Of a stretch of 32,285 nt of DNA, positions 16,823-24,640 are shown one piece after another (the stretch's first letter is position 1; each line of letters begins with the position of its first letter). The stretch is taken from positions 1 through 32,285 of the forward strand of contig JAFTAC010000355.1 of assembly GCA_017458805.1 (NCBI GenBank), read 5' to 3'. Source of the DNA: Victivallales bacterium (GTDB lineage Bacteria > Verrucomicrobiota > Lentisphaeria > Oligosphaerales > Oligosphaeraceae). The notes under the pieces were generated by a model. The model saw only the letters and a program-made list of their open reading frames with translations. It did no database searches and had not been told where the DNA came from. A program made the position numbers and the translations under genes.

Positions 16823-19009
16823 ATGAAAACAATCCTGCCCTTGATATTTGCCCTTCTTCTTTCCGCCTGGGCGCAGTTGGACACGGCGATGCCGTCGCGC
16901 CCCTGGTTTGACCATGTGCGCATGCCTGTTGAAATGAGCCATCAGGAGCTGTGCGCACTGACCAATTCCATCCGCACGGCATTGAAAGGGAAGGCGGATG
17001 CAAAGCAGATTGGGGCGTTGGCTCCAGAGGACAATCGCGCACGTGTCGTCTTTGTCACCGTTGGCGGCGGCAGTTGGCCAGGCAGGACCTATTTTGGCAC
17101 GGGACGCAGTTTCCGCATCGCCTTGACAAGCGCCATTGAAATCATGCTTTCCAACGAGCCAGTGTTTGCGTCGGAGACCGTCAAGCTGGCGGATGCGACC
17201 ATCGGCGACATGCAGAAAGTAGGGCAGCAGCCACCGCCCGAATGGCTGGAGCGCAAGGCGAATCCGACCCAGTGGAACTGGCTGCGTTTGGATGTGGTGC
17301 AGGCGGCAAAGCCCACTTTCGGTTTCTCTGTTGGTCATTCGCGCATTGCGCTGGGCTGTCTGGTCGGCTTTGCGTTCGGACCCGACTTGGGCTTTGCCTT
17401 CTCTCCCAGCCAGGTCATGGCACGCAACATCTTGGATGAGACGGGGCACATCAACACACAGCAGGTGGGAAACCTTATCTCCGAAGGCTACAACTGGCCT
17501 GCGCTCAAGATGTGGATGAAACTGTGCGCGGTGGATGCAGGCCACCGCATCTGCCTCTTCGAGACCGATACCTACTACAGCGACGACGCTGGCACCGTAA
17601 GGCTCTACCGCGGCCATCTGCTGCCTGACGCCCCACCCACGCCTGAATTCTGCCTGGAGGCGGCCTCGCGCTGTGCCAACCGCATTGGCGAACGTCTCAC
17701 TACGAATGGCGTCTTTCCGCCACCCATCCCCGAGTGGTTGCCGAGCTATAGGGAGCAGAATATGACCAAGAGCGAGCGGAAGAAGCGTGCCAAGGCGGAA
17801 AAGGCACTTGGTGTACGTGGCGATGAATCGCTGGAAGTCAAGGCCGAACTTGCCATCGCGCTTGCACGCCTTGCCCGTGCCACTGGCAAGCCTGCCTACA
17901 ATGTAACCGCCAGCAGGCTGCTTAAGCCTATCCTTGCCGCTGTGAAGAAGAGCCGCGATGGCCGCTGGGCTGTCGTGGAGGATGAGGAACTACCCGAATC
18001 CACTCTCCAGCTCCCAGAAAAGGTGGCTCTTCTTTCAACCAACGCCCTCACCTGTCTTGCCCTGCTGGAACTGAAGCAGAACGGCGAACAGGCCACCGAG
18101 CAGCAGGAGGCCCTGATTGGCGCACTTGCCGTCTATCTTGCAAACCAGCTGGAGACGGGGTGCGACTTCGTCTATGCGCGCTACTGGAAAACAGGCAAGA
18201 ACGCCCTGGATGAAAATGGCGAGATGTTTGCAAACGTGGAGGAGACTTCGCTTGCACTTCTGGCCCTTAACAAGGCGGCTGAGGCTCTTGGAAAGCCAGA
18301 GTTGAAGAAGACAGAGGCGCTGAATCTGCTGATGGAGTTGAAGCTGGTCAAGCCACAGCTGGAGAACGTCAATACCAGCCCCTGGTTCGCCGAGGCTCTT
18401 GCCAGCTGCGACAGGACGGACAAGGCGTTCACCCTTTCTTTGCGCAAACTCGGCTTTGCCGTGAGCACCGCCACAGACACCACTCCCCTCTACCCTGATT
18501 ATTACGGCAGCGTCAAACGCCGCCCCAGTTGTACGAGTGCCGCAGAGCGCAGCTGGCTGCTGGCCGTCTTGTCGCAGAAGCTGCGCAGTTACGACAAGCC
18601 GATGCTGGCACAGGAGCAGTTGCAGGAGGCATTGCCTATCCTGATGTTCCAGATGCAGGCCGCCATCGACGTGCCTTCTTCGTCGCTTCTCCCCAGCCCT
18701 TCTGCATACGTTTCGTATTTCCGTGACAACCTTGAAAACTACTATTTCACGATGCCTGGCCAGGTGGCGCAAATCCTTTCGATTGTGGCTGTTTCGCAGG
18801 AACTGAAGGCAACGCCAGCCGTTACTGGGTCCAAGTTTATTCCGCAACTTATGGCCTCCCGTCGGGAGACTGACGTGCATCCAGGACCCGTCACCATCGA
18901 CCTGGTGCTGACGCTTGACAACGACCCTGACGCCAAGGCCCGCGACCTGATGGGCGGTTTCTCCAAGCCCCGCCAGGTGCGCCGTCGCAGTAAGTTGAAG
19001 GGAAAATAA
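16823..19009 (+). CDS. hypothetical secreted protein (728 aa), no family recognised
   Basis: It is a long ORF with a signal peptide (MKTILPLIFALLLSAWAQ) and host-like codon usage. The C-terminal half is helical-repeat-like. Confidence 0.7.
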   Translation: MKTILPLIFALLLSAWAQLDTAMPSRPWFDHVRMPVEMSHQELCALTNSIRTALKGKADAKQIGALAPEDNRARVVFVTVGGGSWPGRTYFGTGRSFRIALTSAIEIMLSNEPVFASETVKLADATIGDMQKVGQQPPPEWLERKANPTQWNWLRLDVVQAAKPTFGFSVGHSRIALGCLVGFAFGPDLGFAFSPSQVMARNILDETGHINTQQVGNLISEGYNWPALKMWMKLCAVDAGHRICLFETDTYYSDDAGTVRLYRGHLLPDAPPTPEFCLEAASRCANRIGERLTTNGVFPPPIPEWLPSYREQNMTKSERKKRAKAEKALGVRGDESLEVKAELAIALARLARATGKPAYNVTASRLLKPILAAVKKSRDGRWAVVEDEELPESTLQLPEKVALLSTNALTCLALLELKQNGEQATEQQEALIGALAVYLANQLETGCDFVYARYWKTGKNALDENGEMFANVEETSLALLALNKAAEALGKPELKKTEALNLLMELKLVKPQLENVNTSPWFAEALASCDRTDKAFTLSLRKLGFAVSTATDTTPLYPDYYGSVKRRPSCTSAAERSWLLAVLSQKLRSYDKPMLAQEQLQEALPILMFQMQAAIDVPSSSLLPSPSAYVSYFRDNLENYYFTMPGQVAQILSIVAVSQELKATPAVTGSKFIPQLMASRRETDVHPGPVTIDLVLTLDNDPDAKARDLMGGFSKPRQVRRRSKLKGK

Positions 19010-19014
19010 CCACT

Positions 19015-20277
19015 ATGCCAGAATACCTTATCGTCCATGCCTGTGTCATCGATCCTCTGAACGACTATGTGGGGGTGCGGGATCTTGCCATCAAGGACGG
19101 CGTTTTTGTCCGTCCCGAAGAGCTGCGTTCGCCAGAGCGTCTGGATATGAAGGGGCTTGTGGTCTGCCCTGGCTTCACCGATGTGCATGTGCATTTGCGT
19201 GACCCAGGCCAGACCTACAAGGAGGATTTGCAGAGCGGTACCGCAGCAGCGGCGGCGGGCGGCTTCACCTCCATCCTCGCCATGCCAAACACTGTTCCTG
19301 CCATGGATTCCCCCGAGATGGTGCGCGATATCCACAGGCGTGCTGTTGATGCGCCTGTCCACGTCTATCAGGCGGCGTGCTTCACGAAAGGTCGACTGGG
19401 GCAGGAGCTGTCACCGATGGAAGAGCTGGCCGCCGCTGGCACTCCCGCCTTCTCCGATGACGGCAGCACCACGCAGAGCAATGCGTTGATGGAAGAGGCG
19501 ATGGCTCGTGCCGCCGCGCTGGGATTGCCCGTCATCGACCACTGCGAGGACACGTCTATTTCCAAGCCAGGTGTCATGCACCGTGGCTTTGTCTCCATGG
19601 AGATGGGGCTGCCTGGGCAACCGCGTGTCGCCGAAGAGATCATTGTGGAGCGGGATATACGCTTGTCGCGCAAAACAGGGTGCCACGTCCACTTGCAGCA
19701 CTTGAGCTCTGGCGGTTCCGTCAAGATGCTTCGCGAGGCAAAGAAACAGGGTGTGAAGGTGACTGGCGAGGCTACGCCGCACCATCTTTTCCTGACCGAT
19801 GAGGCCTGCCGCAAGTACGGCACCAACGCAAAAATGGCACCGCCTCTGCGCGAAGAGGTTGACCGCCAGGCGCTTATTTCAGCACTTCAGGACGGCACCA
19901 TCGAACTTATCGCCACCGATCATGCACCACACACCGCTGAGGAGAAGGCTCGTGACTGGGCTTCGGCACCCTTTGGAATTGTCGGCATTGAGACAGTTGT
20001 TCCGCTGTGCATCTCGCGCCTGTATCATCCAGGGCTGCTGTCGCTTATGCAGCTGGTTTCACTCTTCACCATCGGCCCTCGCCGTCTCCTCAACCTCCCC
20101 ATCGGCAGCCTGAACATCGGTGAACCTGCGGATTTGACGGTCCTCGACCTTGAGAAGAACCACACCATCGACACGTCCAAGTTCCGCTCACGCGGCCAGA
20201 ACTGCCCCTACAACGGCTGGGAATGCACAGGCGCAGTCCACAGCACCTTCCTTGCGGGCAAGCATATTGGAGGGTGA
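19015..20277 (+). CDS. pyrC: dihydroorotase
   Basis: It has PGFTDVHVHLRDPG and IATDHAPH, with a typical length of ~420 aa. Confidence 0.92.
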   Translation: MPEYLIVHACVIDPLNDYVGVRDLAIKDGVFVRPEELRSPERLDMKGLVVCPGFTDVHVHLRDPGQTYKEDLQSGTAAAAAGGFTSILAMPNTVPAMDSPEMVRDIHRRAVDAPVHVYQAACFTKGRLGQELSPMEELAAAGTPAFSDDGSTTQSNALMEEAMARAAALGLPVIDHCEDTSISKPGVMHRGFVSMEMGLPGQPRVAEEIIVERDIRLSRKTGCHVHLQHLSSGGSVKMLREAKKQGVKVTGEATPHHLFLTDEACRKYGTNAKMAPPLREEVDRQALISALQDGTIELIATDHAPHTAEEKARDWASAPFGIVGIETVVPLCISRLYHPGLLSLMQLVSLFTIGPRRLLNLPIGSLNIGEPADLTVLDLEKNHTIDTSKFRSRGQNCPYNGWECTGAVHSTFLAGKHIGG

Positions 20278-20280
20278 AGC

Positions 20281-20751
20281 ATGGAAGACCGCTTCATCTA
20301 TCATGGTAGTCAGCAGAGGGTTGAAAAGCCAGAAATTCGTGTCAGTAGATTTGGCAAGGATTTCGGTGTTGGGTTTTATTGCACGATTATAAAGGCGCAG
20401 GCCATCCGATGGGCGACACGCTTTCCTGTTACGGGCTTTGTCAGCGAGTTCGCCTACACACAGAATCCTGCCCTGAAGATGAAGTTCTTTGAGACAATGA
20501 CCGAAGAGTGGCTTGACTTCATTGCCGATTGCCGCCATGGCAAACCTCATGATTATGACATCGTGGAAGGACCAATGGCCAATGACACCATTTTCAATTA
20601 TGTTGAAGATTTCATTAACGGCAACATCTCGCGCGAGGCTTTTTGGGCTTTGGCCAAGTTCAAAAGGCCGACGCATCAAATATGCTTTCATACGACAGAA
20701 GCACTTGCCACGCTGACATTCAGAGGATGTGAAACGTATGATACCGTTTGA
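20281..20751 (+). CDS. DUF3990-like protein, copy 1 (PARP/ART-like YHGS...GFYCT signature)
   Basis: ATG lies 3 nt after the pyrC stop, with an SD (ggaggg). Motifs are IYHGS, DFGVGFYCT, IRWATR and YDIVEGPMAND. The family name is from memory. Confidence 0.75.
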   Translation: MEDRFIYHGSQQRVEKPEIRVSRFGKDFGVGFYCTIIKAQAIRWATRFPVTGFVSEFAYTQNPALKMKFFETMTEEWLDFIADCRHGKPHDYDIVEGPMANDTIFNYVEDFINGNISREAFWALAKFKRPTHQICFHTTEALATLTFRGCETYDTV

Positions 20752-21199
20752 TTACGATTTATTCTTCACGTGCAGTCTTCTGGAACTTATGGCTCGGAAA
20801 ACCCTCCAGAAGCGCGGGGCTTTGGTGACACTGCTTGGCAAGAAGATTGTCGCTCATATCTACTCCCATGCTGATGTCCTGCATTGCGAGCCAATTGAGA
20901 AGACAGCGGAGACATTCATTGAGATGTGCAATGTTCCGCAAGGAGATTTCGACAATATCAGCTCATGCAAGTTCACGGTGCCCACGTACTGGGACATTGG
21001 TAAGGTCTATACCCGCCTGATACAGGATGTCAACGACGGCGACCTTATCGATACACTTTTCACGGTCTATACCTCCATCACCAGCGACCTTATCTGCAAT
21101 TTCAACAGTGCCTTTTACTATCAGTCGCGCGATGCAATCAAGTTCTATTATTATGAATTTGCAGGACCCAAACAAACGTCAACGGCTTCGGGGAGGTAA
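20738..21199 (+). CDS. DUF3791-like partner protein, apparent two-domain fusion
   Basis: ATG 20738 overlaps the upstream ORF by 14 nt (the alternative start is GTG 20729). By eye, the N-terminal half aligns to ORF 21921 and the C-terminal half to ORF 21673. Confidence 0.6.
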   Translation: MIPFDYDLFFTCSLLELMARKTLQKRGALVTLLGKKIVAHIYSHADVLHCEPIEKTAETFIEMCNVPQGDFDNISSCKFTVPTYWDIGKVYTRLIQDVNDGDLIDTLFTVYTSITSDLICNFNSAFYYQSRDAIKFYYYEFAGPKQTSTASGR

Positions 21200-21202
21200 A
21201 TA

Positions 21203-21676
21203 ATGTTGTTATATCATGGAAGTTACATGGTGGTTGATGCCCCGAGGCTGATTATTCCGCAGCGTCTGTTAGATTTTGGTCCAGGTTTTTACTTGACGAG
21301 CGACTTCGAGCAGGCTCGGAAATGGGCGACCCGTACCAAGATTATTCGCAATTCGGGAACGTCTGCAGTCTCCGTATTTGATTTTGACGAACAAGAGTTG
21401 GCACGCCTTGAGGTTTTGACTTTCAGCTCGCCTAATCGTGAATGGCTTCGTTTTGTTGTTGCCAATCGTACTGGTAAGCTCACGCCACAATACGATATTG
21501 TTCATGGTCCTGTGGCAAATGACCAGACGGTGCGTACAATCAATGACTTCCAAAACGGTTATTTCTCCGAAGAGATTGCTCTTCAGCTTTTGTTGCCTCA
21601 AAAGCTGAAGGACCAATTTGCGTTCAAAACAGAAAAAGCTTTGCAATGCTTGCATTTCAAGGAGGCTCTTGCATGA
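21203..21676 (+). CDS. DUF3990-like protein, copy 2
   Basis: ATG lies 3 nt after TAA 21197-21199, with an SD (gggagg). Motifs are LYHGS, DFGPGFYLT, RKWATR and YDIVHGPVAND. Confidence 0.75.
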   Translation: MLLYHGSYMVVDAPRLIIPQRLLDFGPGFYLTSDFEQARKWATRTKIIRNSGTSAVSVFDFDEQELARLEVLTFSSPNREWLRFVVANRTGKLTPQYDIVHGPVANDQTVRTINDFQNGYFSEEIALQLLLPQKLKDQFAFKTEKALQCLHFKEALA

Positions 21677-21918
21677 ATCGTCCTGCACCTGAAATCATCG
21701 ACTTCCTCGACTGTGAAGTTACCAAGATGATAGCGGAGAAGTATGGCTATGAGCCGATGGAAGCTCTGCGACAGTTCGTATATTCCGCAACGCATGAACT
21801 GTTGGAGAATGCGGACATGGGGTTGCATTTGTACAGCGCGGGGGTTATCTTTGATCTCTGGGAAGCGGAGAAGGTGACGGGTGATCCGCGCAGGTCCATT
21901 TACATCAGGGAGGGGTGA
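21673..21918 (+). CDS. small helical partner protein (DUF3791-like)
   Basis: There is an ATGA start/stop overlap at 21673-21676 and an SD (aaggagg) at 21658-21664. The protein is 81 aa. Confidence 0.6.
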   Translation: MNRPAPEIIDFLDCEVTKMIAEKYGYEPMEALRQFVYSATHELLENADMGLHLYSAGVIFDLWEAEKVTGDPRRSIYIREG

Positions 21919-21920
21919 AT

Positions 21921-22145
21921 ATGTCCGAGGAAATGAAGTTTTTCATCTATCTTCTGGAGCAGTATGCGGCATATCGCAATATGAAAACGGGCGATGTCTT
22001 GCGCGAATGGGATCAGAAGCAACTTACAAAGCGGATTTACGACAGCTATTGGGGGTATCACACAGAGCGGCTTGAAAACGCATTCACCGACATCGACAGT
22101 TTGCTTGAAACTGGCAAGTCCGCATGGATCGCACCACATGCGTGA
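21921..22145 (+). CDS. DUF3791-like small protein
   Basis: ATG 21921 follows TGA 21916-21918, and an SD (agggagggg) is present. The alternative start is GTG 21915. The pattern FFIYLLEQYA...IYDSYWGYHTERLE resembles DUF3791 from memory. Confidence 0.65.
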   Translation: MSEEMKFFIYLLEQYAAYRNMKTGDVLREWDQKQLTKRIYDSYWGYHTERLENAFTDIDSLLETGKSAWIAPHA

Positions 22146-22167
22146 CAACATCAATAGTAGGCTGTTT

Positions 22168-23301
22168 TCAACAAGTTACAAGACTTGCCATTACAGTTGT
22201 ACGCATACTGCCTTTTTCAGCGAACAAGGCGCTGTCCGTCACCACGGCGGCGTTTTCGCCAAACGGTGCGCAATGGAAATTGCCGTATCTTGCCTCAATG
22301 CCATTGTGGTTTTGTTGCGGGAAAACCACTTTTTCGCTGTCCCGTAGAAGAGATGCGTTCTCAACATTAGCCTCTGCAATAAAGAGCGGTGCGCGGAAAC
22401 GCATGATGTGCGTATTGCTTCCGTTGTTTCGCGTATAGACGAGAAACACCTTATTGCCGAGGCGTATCCAATGCTGCTGCGTGGAGTCGGTTTCAATCGG
22501 ACTACCGTCATCCCAACGCCATGGGCGTATGTCGCGCCACGAAAGGCCATCCACGCTAACCGCACGGTACATATTGCCGTCTTCCGCACGCAATGTCAGC
22601 GCAAACGTCGAATCCGCAAGGCGTATGGCCGATGGTTCTACGCAGCCGCGTAGAACGGGCAGCTCCAGCAGGTCGCTTTGCGCTTCCAAAACCAACTGCG
22701 ACGCCTCAATGCGATAGATTGCCGTCATGGATGCAAAGCGAGGAGAGGTATATCCATGGAAATCGCAGGTCTTGCCACTGTCCAAATAAATCGGCAGGAG
22801 TATGCGATCATTCTCCAGTAGTACTGCCTGCGTGCAAGCTGTGCGATAGGAACGCGTTATGCCATTGAGTTCCAAAACGCCATAACCACTCCACGTTCCC
22901 GTGTCAGGCGACCATAAACTATAGACTGCCTTGCCAGACGGCGGCTTTGCCGTCTGGCCTTTGTCCCAAAAGGCATTGCCTTTTGCTGTGTAGTGACTTG
23001 TGCAGCCAAACACGGCAACCCGTCCATCCTGCAACGTGAATGGCCGCACATCGGCGACTCCCTCTGTAAATGGCGTGCTCTCAAGAGTTCTGCACTTGAA
23101 GGCAGGAATCTCTTCTGGCACCGACCATTCTTCCTCTAGGCCGTTGCACAGGGCGTACATCGGCGCTCCATAATGGTCGGAGCCGTTGATTTCCTGCATG
23201 GAGGCAAAGACCCTCCCGTCATGCAGAAGTGTGGTCGAAGGATGGAACCAGGCAGTTTGACTCGTTCCAAAGTTATTGATTTTAAGTGACTTGAGTATCA
23301 T
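22168..23301 (-). CDS. BNR/Asp-box (sialidase-fold-like) protein, no signal peptide
   Basis: It has one Asp-box-like SVDGLSW and beta-rich composition. ATG 23301 lies 1 nt after the upstream ATPase stop. Confidence 0.45.
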   Translation of the reverse strand: MILKSLKINNFGTSQTAWFHPSTTLLHDGRVFASMQEINGSDHYGAPMYALCNGLEEEWSVPEEIPAFKCRTLESTPFTEGVADVRPFTLQDGRVAVFGCTSHYTAKGNAFWDKGQTAKPPSGKAVYSLWSPDTGTWSGYGVLELNGITRSYRTACTQAVLLENDRILLPIYLDSGKTCDFHGYTSPRFASMTAIYRIEASQLVLEAQSDLLELPVLRGCVEPSAIRLADSTFALTLRAEDGNMYRAVSVDGLSWRDIRPWRWDDGSPIETDSTQQHWIRLGNKVFLVYTRNNGSNTHIMRFRAPLFIAEANVENASLLRDSEKVVFPQQNHNGIEARYGNFHCAPFGENAAVVTDSALFAEKGSMRTTVMASLVTC

Positions 23302-23302
23302 A

Positions 23303-24640
23303 CTAATTTGAGGAGTTTTTCAGGAATCTCCTTAGCAGAAACGCGCAGAAGTATGGGAATGTCGTGATGGTTTCTGTTTGACCGAGGTTTCCATTGATGA
23401 ACTTGATGCCGTGGCGGATGTCAGGATAGTGGTCAGAGGCTATCAGATTGCGCAGGGATTTTGAGATGGAGTTTCCGCCTTTTACTTCAATGGGAAGCAG
23501 CTCACTTGCTGTCCTCACGAAGAAATCCTGTTCGAGCGAGCCGTCTTCGCGGCGGTAGTAATAGAGGTCATAGCCAGACTTGGAAAGCGCTTCTGCTACG
23601 ATGTTTTCGTAGATCGCCCCCTTATAGACGCCGAGATTGTTGTTAATGCGCAAATCATCGCCAGCCTCGTCGTCAAGCATGGCAACCAACAGGCCCGTAT
23701 CAGGAACATAGAGCTTGAACTTCTGCATATCGGCATTGCCTTTCAGCGGCAGTTCGGGAAAGTTGAGGCAGTGGCAGATGGAGGCGACGCCTGCGTCCAG
23801 CAGCCATTCAACGCATCCAAAATACTCCCTTGAACGGGCTCCCGGTGCTATCTTGCTGTATTGGAACTTCTTGTTTTCTTTGGCAAGCTGCGGCGCAATC
23901 TGATTGAACACCGCCTGAATCTTGGTTTTGTCCAGGCTTTCCGCATATTTGCGGATGTCCGCCTGGTAATCCTGCAGGATCTGCCGTTGAATATCCAGCG
24001 TCCGTTCAAATGTGTGCCGCGTAACATAATCACGCAGAACAGCGGGCATTCCGCCAAGCAGAATATAATCCATGAATAGGTTTGAAAACAGCTTCAGTTC
24101 CCCAGGCGTGAATGGCTTGAGAGATTGCATTTGCTCAAATATCTCATCAGCAATGTCTTCTTGATACCCAAGAGCCCAGAGGTACTCCTCGAAGTCAAAG
24201 GAACGCATGAGGTAGTCTGTTTTGTAGCCGACACTTTGCGATGCAATCCGCTTGTACTGAATGCCAAGCAGCGACCCGCTGCAGATGACATCAAAACGCC
24301 CGTCCTGCTTGAAGAACTTCAACGATGTCGTGATGTCGGGAAACTCCTGCACCTCATCGAAGAATATCAAGGTATGGCCAGCCTCAAAGCGAAATTGCGG
24401 GGTCACTTTGGACATCAGCTTGACGATGCTTGAAGCACTATATCCCTCTTCAATAATGGTTTTGAACTTCGGCTCTTCAACAAAATTGACCTCAAGAAAA
24501 CGGCGATAATTCTCCTTGGCGAAAGACCGTATGGTCTCCGTCTTCCCAACCTGGCGCGCTCCACGTACAATCAGCGGCAGACGCTCCTCCGACTGCCGCC
24601 ATTCCCGCAGAAAACCATCTGTTTTTCGTTTCAAATACAT
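23303..24640 (-). CDS. AAA-type ATPase with DUF4143-like C-terminal domain
   Basis: Walker A is GARQVGKT and Walker B is LIFFDEVQ. Length and layout are typical of this widespread ATPase family. Confidence 0.8.
   Translation of the reverse strand: MYLKRKTDGFLREWRQSEERLPLIVRGARQVGKTETIRSFAKENYRRFLEVNFVEEPKFKTIIEEGYSASSIVKLMSKVTPQFRFEAGHTLIFFDEVQEFPDITTSLKFFKQDGRFDVICSGSLLGIQYKRIASQSVGYKTDYLMRSFDFEEYLWALGYQEDIADEIFEQMQSLKPFTPGELKLFSNLFMDYILLGGMPAVLRDYVTRHTFERTLDIQRQILQDYQADIRKYAESLDKTKIQAVFNQIAPQLAKENKKFQYSKIAPGARSREYFGCVEWLLDAGVASICHCLNFPELPLKGNADMQKFKLYVPDTGLLVAMLDDEAGDDLRINNNLGVYKGAIYENIVAEALSKSGYDLYYYRREDGSLEQDFFVRTASELLPIEVKGGNSISKSLRNLIASDHYPDIRHGIKFINGNLGQTETITTFPYFCAFLLRRFLKNSSN

Follow-up and report, generated by a model that had tools for sequence, protein, structure and literature searches.

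Two DUF3990 proteins with a predicted ADP-ribosyltransferase fold as putative effectors of tandem toxin-antitoxin-like cassettes in a Victivallales bacterium

Small toxins with an ADP-ribosyltransferase (ART) fold, each encoded next to a gene whose product neutralises it, are found in the RES-Xre, ParST and DarTG systems, which are mobile and linked to defence. The Pfam ART clan comprises 23 families, and DUF3990 (PF13151) is listed among them (2021 paper, PMC7955679). The same domain is found in Rhs proteins: in Rhs5 of Serratia marcescens, a putative effector of a type VI secretion system (T6SS), DUF3990 is the only recognisable domain of the C-terminal region and is followed by a small open reading frame (ORF) predicted to confer immunity (PMC4524185), and RhsA of Enterobacter bugandensis, another predicted T6SS effector, likewise ends in a DUF3990 domain (PMC10763514). 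Here we describe a stretch of 32,285 nucleotides from a Victivallales bacterium (contig JAFTAC010000355.1, analysed at its full length and referred to below as the window), in which two DUF3990 genes, copy 1 and copy 2, each open a small gene cassette. We consider it reasonably probable that each DUF3990 protein is an NAD+-using ART whose catalytic residues are H-Y-D, that it serves as toxic effector in a toxin-antitoxin (TA)-like, candidate defence cassette, and that it is held in check by one or more co-translated helical partners. Such a protein would bind NAD+ and transfer ADP-ribose to an essential target of the cell or of a phage. The acidic helical partners, encoded downstream by translationally coupled genes, would neutralise such an enzyme, probably through direct contact with it, and the two cassettes (PDC-M10 and PDC-M13 in the PADLOC nomenclature) would be independent, horizontally mobile units.

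Copy 1 (20281..20751, forward strand) encodes a protein of 156 aa and corresponds to PADLOC PDC-M10A; copy 2 (21203..21676, forward strand) encodes 157 aa and corresponds to PDC-M13A. An earlier note on this DNA had given both as 156 aa, which is correct for copy 1 and one residue short for copy 2. The two proteins are 36% identical (E 1e-24) and are thus true paralogues. By sequence, both are ordinary full-length members of DUF3990: the Pfam model, which is 152 positions long and has a gathering threshold of 32.2 bits, matched copy 1 with 166.0 bits (E 6.4e-49, model positions 3-152) and copy 2 with 163.7 bits (E 3.1e-48, model positions 1-152), and the PADLOC models PDC-M10A and PDC-M13A matched them with E-values of 4.4e-74 and 6.6e-63, respectively. 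Public assemblies already hold identical and near-identical proteins; MBR4220096.1, near-identical and from the same cluster, is recorded as 'DUF3990 domain-containing protein [Victivallales bacterium]'. The family is very large: when 1.84 billion representatives were searched with its profile, 8,360 clusters at 50% identity were retrieved at E <=1e-3. The NCBIfam search of the window proteins gave zero matches, and that of PHROGs a single marginal one, of unknown function.

A scripted check located the motifs in both proteins. Copy 1 carries Y-H-G-S at residues 7-10, G-F-Y-C-T at 31-35 and Y-D-I-V-E-G-P-M-A-N-D at 92-102, and copy 2 carries Y-H-G-S at 4-7, G-F-Y-L-T at 28-32 and Y-D-I-V-H-G-P-V-A-N-D at 97-107, all at the positions proposed by the earlier note. 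Its other two readings of the alignment were also correct: the spacing from His to Tyr is 25 residues in both copies, and E96 of copy 1 is the counterpart of H101 in copy 2. A combination of H-G-[ST] with G-x-Y-h 15-45 residues further on was found in no more than 0.055% of 20,000 shuffles of either protein, and among the 117 stop-to-stop ORFs of the window (at least 100 aa, six frames) this pair is limited to copies 1 and 2; its occurrence is therefore above chance.

The copy 1 protein was modelled with AlphaFold2 on a 100-sequence alignment covering both subfamilies. The model (pLDDT 92.2, pTM 0.87) contains strands at residues 4-10, 32-35, 52-59, 67-69, 94-99 and 131-136 (b1 to b6). When it was compared to the PDB with Foldseek, each match at E <=0.1 was a chain of the ART superfamily, with probabilities of 0.84-1.0. 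The top E-values were those of PARP1 (8u4w, 5.5e-4) and PARP4 (8swz, 5.8e-4); other PARP-type matches were PARP2 and PARP4 chains 8swy and 8sx2, some of the PARP4 chains being NADH-bound. Domain III of exotoxin A (ExoA; 1dma) was also in this set, PARP12 and PARP13 were found lower in the list, and the best TM-scores were obtained with the RES toxin of Xre-RES (9r35_A, 0.51; 6gw6_A, 0.48). Among the viral models of BFVD one close relative, A0A0H3UZB3, reached a TM-score of 0.76. Further annotated matches there were mostly ARTs (ART-PolyVal-like proteins, a phage 'NAD(+) ADP-ribosyltransferase' and PARP-domain proteins), and the list also includes uncharacterised phage and giant-virus proteins.

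The sequence comparisons are fainter. Neither copy matched the hidden Markov models (HMMs) of the PARP catalytic domain (PF00644) or of ART-PolyVal (PF18760) at E <=1, and membership of the PARP family proper was accordingly set aside. A Pfam search of 100 relatives gave sub-threshold matches to ART-PolyVal in 21 and to PARP in 2 (E 0.088 or weaker). In an hhalign comparison of the family profile with the ART subdomain of PARP1, whose sequence was confirmed to be identical to residues 96-250 of 8u4w_A, H8 was placed on H862 and F-G-x-G-x-Y33 on F-G-K-G-I-Y896; this alignment is statistically weak and agrees with the fold result. Taken together, the model and these comparisons support the view that DUF3990 proteins have a minimal single-domain ART fold of the H-Y-[EDQ] clade. 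The earlier note had proposed a PARP-type ART-like motif set and had looked to fold prediction and to conservation among homologues for a decision; the predicted fold is ART-like, with PARP, RES and ExoA among its matches, and H, Y and D are near-invariant in a family that exceeds 8,000 clusters. As a classification this is a rediscovery, the Pfam clan already holding DUF3990.

Conservation was examined in two samples. Among 100 relatives of both subfamilies, H8 is conserved in 99%, Y33 in 100%, D93 in 99%, D102 in 100% and N101 in 90%. Among 150 representatives at 50% clustering the corresponding counts are 141/146 for H8, 147/147 for Y33, 149/150 for D93 and 145/150 for D102, and D27, W77, R85 and Q133 are likewise near-invariant. 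The position of E96 in copy 1 is occupied by Glu in 45% and by Ile in 36% of the 100 relatives, and the preference of the earlier note for a conserved Asp over E96 as the third catalytic residue is thereby strengthened. In the copy 1 model H8 lies within the strand at 4-10, Y33 within that at 32-35 and D93 directly before the fifth strand (94-99); D102, as conserved as D93, caps the next helix. In ARTs the three catalytic residues are contributed by strands 1 and 2 and by the front edge of strand 5 (PMC7955679). D93, at the front edge of the predicted strand 5, is therefore assigned to the canonical third position. The predicted catalytic set is thus His8 (codon 20302-20304), Tyr33 (20377-20379) and Asp93 (20557-20559) in copy 1 and His5 (21215-21217), Tyr30 (21290-21292) and Asp98 (21494-21496) in copy 2; the codons of the second conserved Asp are 20584-20586 (D102) and 21521-21523 (D107).

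As judged from the model, the DUF3990 proteins would have in common with PARP (PF00644) and with the H-Y-E enzymes of the diphtheria toxin and ExoA type the split-sheet fold, with strand 1 carrying H-G-S, strand 2 carrying G-x-Y-h and strand 5 having an acidic residue at its front. They differ from these enzymes in having Asp and not Glu as the predicted third residue, and from PARP also in the size of the domain, which at ~155 aa is devoid of a helical or regulatory subdomain and reaches TM-scores of only 0.40-0.46. The nearest sequence family appears to be ART-PolyVal, the ART domain of phage polyvalent proteins, as indicated by the weak matches in the His-Tyr region and by the BFVD fold matches. 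All of the former are below the gathering score of 31.2 bits, however, and DUF3990 is found in stand-alone proteins with small partners, not in giant phage proteins.

Copies 1 and 2 are part of a five-gene islet of low GC content (20281..22145, forward strand; ~47% GC compared to ~59% in the flanks, according to the composition profile and the ORF map), which begins 3 nt past the stop codon of the dihydroorotase gene pyrC. The five genes are co-directional, and their starts and stops overlap or abut. Scans for promoters and terminators over 19900-22400 yielded nothing above shuffled expectation. The partner of copy 1 (20738..21199, forward strand) matches PDC-M10B (E 2.2e-50) and shares 14 nt with the 3' end of copy 1. 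Its start is taken as the ATG at 20738, as in the public gene calls of 153 aa; the mechanical ORF begins with the GTG at 20729. Copy 2 is followed by two small genes. The first (21673..21918, forward strand; 81 aa in the public gene calls, PDC-M13B E 1.5e-30) has its start codon overlapping the stop codon of copy 2 (ATGA), and an 81-aa gene occupies the same position in four unrelated contexts. The second (21921..22145, forward strand; 74 aa) is a DUF3791 protein (PF12668 E 9.8e-09, PDC-M13C E 4.5e-36) and keeps its third place in the cassette at other loci.

All of the partner proteins are acidic, with isoelectric points (pI) of 4.6-5.3 (5.3 for the copy 1 partner and 4.6 for the 81-aa protein), and none has a Pfam match to macro, NADAR or an Xre-type helix-turn-helix (HTH). 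The copy 1 partner, which is presumed to be an antitoxin or immunity protein, is all-alpha: its AlphaFold2 model (pLDDT 92) consists of 8 helices, and its N-terminal half is weakly DUF3791-like (Pfam E 0.01). A Foldseek search of the PDB with this model found no fold match (best E 4.5), by which an antitoxin of known macrodomain, ARH or NADAR-like fold was ruled out for this protein. In pairwise and profile comparisons, the three partners were linked only weakly (E 0.045-0.08), through the DUF3791-like stretch; at this level the idea that the two small partners have been fused to give the 153-aa protein finds no support. Within the M10B family, C12, R20, R26, H49-C50-E51, D72, W85, R93 and N123 are invariant polar residues, and in one weak pairwise alignment (E 0.045) the His and Glu of this H-C-E align with those of an H-T-E in the DUF3791 protein of the second cassette.

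In gene content and layout, as far as genes reveal it, the locus is analogous to RES-Xre, ParST and DarTG, and the toxin-first order of DarTG would also be that of both cassettes. The DUF3990 proteins differ from the RES-Xre pair in carrying H-Y-D and not R-E-S, and their partners in being all-alpha and devoid of an HTH_Xre match. Several known identities were tried and dropped. A DarTG system is contradicted by the lack of a DarT (PF14487) match in the window proteins and their relatives and by a partner that is all-alpha, with no macro or NADAR match; Tpt1/KptA (PF01885, H-H-h) by the lack of a Pfam match and by a strand-2 residue that is Tyr, not His; and a RhsP2-type or DarT-type protein by the lack of such chains among the fold and sequence matches.

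All five islet genes match the components of PDC-M10 (A and B) and PDC-M13 (A, B and C), adjacent, co-oriented and in the expected order. Both cassettes are already catalogued in PADLOC, so that this classification too is not new, and PDC-M13 has been reported to rank with the commonest predicted defence loci of rumen metagenome-assembled genomes (MAGs). The linkage of toxin candidate and partner was followed in 80 genome loci encoding copy-1-like proteins. An M10B homologue was found directly downstream and on the same strand in 79 of the 80, the exception ending at a contig edge. A second DUF3990 gene within 3 kb was present in just 2 of these loci, and the head-to-tail arrangement of PDC-M10 and PDC-M13 in the window is thus unusual; it looks like the outcome of sequential acquisition. 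The M13-type layout, with proteins of 157-159, 81 and 69 aa and a 4-nt overlap of the first two genes, recurs in four unrelated chromosomal contexts.

The hosts of copy-1-like proteins are scattered over Bacillota, Bacteroidota, Synergistaceae, Treponema, MAGs of Coriobacteriaceae and the methanogens Methanosphaera and Methanobrevibacter. This patchy spread across phyla, at 55-67% identity, argues for horizontal transfer. A 73%-identical relative is located next to HicAB and PIN modules in mobilisable elements, which carry Mob_Pre, TraX, resolvase and integrase, and relatives are encoded on 88 plasmids. On the 17.5-kb plasmid pCLI of C. botulinum (NC_009700.1, 2274-3209), the rep gene is followed by a DUF3791 gene, a DUF3990 gene and a gene for a hypothetical protein of 75 aa, a permuted order which indicates that the DUF3791 partner can also lie upstream. 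The methanogen MAG contigs (L038, L046, L050 and L056) carry copy-1-type cassettes with the downstream partner, at 56-63% protein identity; they suggest transfer from bacteria to archaea, or possibly reflect contamination during MAG binning.

The first cassette is also variable between strains. Metagenome contig JAEEGL014431604.1 is ~98% identical to the window and lacks a unit corresponding to 20275..21189, which comprises copy 1 and its partner. As seen in the blastn alignment and at the junction, 72 bp of unrelated DNA (1048-1119 of that contig) are found in its place. In this contig the second cassette directly follows pyrC, which is extended by 13 codons; in public data, a single 90% cluster contains both a 420-aa and a 432-aa allele of pyrC.

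The toxin role suggested by the earlier note is in line with the overlapping small partners, the plasmid and mobile-element sites and the C-terminal DUF3990 domain of the Serratia Rhs protein. The occurrence of DUF3990 at the C-termini of Rhs5 and RhsA supports a toxic potential of the fold. There, the domain is fused to Rhs delivery cages and its toxicity is predicted, whereas the window proteins are free-standing and would be cytoplasmic members of TA-like cassettes.

Several points weigh against the proposal that the DUF3990 proteins are restrained, toxic ARTs. The TM-scores to solved ARTs are modest (0.40-0.51), and the comparison of the family profile with PARP1 had an E-value of 0.025, as a single comparison, and a probability of 2%. 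The placement of D93 rests on predicted secondary structure and not on a 3-D superposition, and an hhalign comparison with the C-terminal segment of PARP1 (the E988 region) was uninformative (E 0.54). PDB chains searched by sequence with copy 1 and with the family profile gave no meaningful match, i.e. no relative with a solved structure. The pI values of the DUF3990 proteins, 6.0 and 6.8, are not basic, and this near neutrality does not favour a nucleic-acid target. The literature on DUF3990, PF13151, DUF3791 and PDC-M10/M13 yielded no functional or biochemical study, and T6SS papers of 2023 and 2025 still call the function of DUF3990 unknown. The PDC set itself consists of 145 untested 'guilt-by-embedding' candidates collected from BREX, DISARM and type I restriction-modification (RM) loci (bioRxiv 10.1101/2024.01.29.577857). 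Finally, the constraint on M10B is high for a simple binding antitoxin, and the partner may do more than bind.

This last point leads to a variant in which the all-alpha partners are enzymes or sensors, of a fold unmatched in the PDB, that reverse or gate ADP-ribosylation by the H-Y-D ART. We regard it as a long shot; if true, the cassettes would represent a new kind of defence module based on reversible ADP-ribosylation, and one that is widespread among methanogens and the bacteria of gut and rumen. A different explanation concerns the chemistry. An ART fold may be used for the destruction of NAD+, by a glycohydrolase or phosphorylase as in RES and MbcT, and toxicity or abortive infection would then result from NAD+ depletion and not from a modified macromolecule. 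The RES toxin did give the best PDB TM-scores, the size of ~155 aa and the small-cassette layout are RES-like, and the proteins are non-basic, so that no nucleic-acid-binding surface is suggested. RES toxins, however, have a conserved R-E-S where the DUF3990 proteins have H-Y-D. By sequence the latter are nearest to ART-PolyVal and PARP, Foldseek gave its most significant E-values with PARPs, and no Xre-type HTH match in Pfam is present in the partner; NAD+ destruction is, on this evidence, unlikely.

It might also be argued that the DUF3990 proteins are not toxic at all, and that they serve as housekeeping or regulatory enzymes (a Tpt1/KptA-like RNA 2'-phosphotransferase, an RNA-end modifier or an ART that reversibly regulates the small partners) in cassettes that are neither TA nor defence systems. 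The position of the window genes, 3 nt behind the dihydroorotase gene and with no promoter-like site above chance, is compatible with such a role, as is that of several M13-type cassettes between housekeeping genes. Yet no PTS_2-RNA Pfam match was obtained, no Tpt1 chain is among the 50 best fold matches, and presence or absence between strains, plasmid and mobilisable sites, a patchy archaeal spread and Rhs fusions are typical of conflict systems, which makes this explanation quite improbable. Dead ARTs such as PARP13 have lost the H-Y-acidic set. In the DUF3990 family, by contrast, H, Y and D are near-invariant over thousands of clusters, and ARTs account for all fold matches at E <=0.1 and for most of the annotated viral ones; despite the modest TM-scores and the low hhalign probability, it is very improbable that the resemblance is superficial, with DUF3990 being either a catalytically dead scaffold on the ART fold or no ART at all.

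With the DUF3990 proteins taken as restrained ART effectors, the locus is of interest mainly as an experimental lead. DUF3990 is among the larger families of the ART clan without biochemistry, and the microbiomes of gut and rumen are rich in it; identification of its substrate, and of the way in which it is held back by DUF3791-type partners, would establish a new paradigm of ART-based TA or defence systems. The finding thus draws its value from directing attention to a large ART family as yet untouched by experiment, and what the window itself adds is a natural tandem of both cassette types and, for one of the two, a clean indel between strains.

A few further observations concern the surroundings in which DUF3990 genes are found. 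Four representatives of 310-411 aa (P0244-P0247) have the DUF3990 domain after an N-terminal HsdS (Methylase_S) region; they are genuine fusions or else gene calls that ran on within RM loci, and they fit the origin of the PDC candidates in such loci. In one lineage (L181, 2274-4590; L182, 280-2596) an M13-type cassette is located between a gene for a Fic-domain protein and a NADAR (PF08719) gene, a single context which may be a coincidence; NADAR proteins are ADP-ribosyl-nucleobase hydrolases (PMC11543638). DUF3990 relatives of up to 60% identity are encoded by six contigs of human faecal origin that are recorded, unannotated, as 'Bacteriophage sp.' (MT836695.1 and five others), and the family is thus also present on putative phage DNA.

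Two other features of the window lie outside the cassettes. Just upstream of pyrC, a gene at 16823-19009 (forward strand) encodes a protein of 728 aa with a signal-peptide-like N-terminus, which had no Pfam match at E <=0.001 and is conserved in Victivallales relatives. Downstream, an AAA_14/DUF4143 ATPase gene (23303-24640, reverse strand) is also missing from JAEEGL014431604.1, in which the sequence corresponding to 23343 joins that at ~24739. This junction is followed by ~740 bp not present in the window, marking a second strain-variable spot within a few kb of the cassettes.

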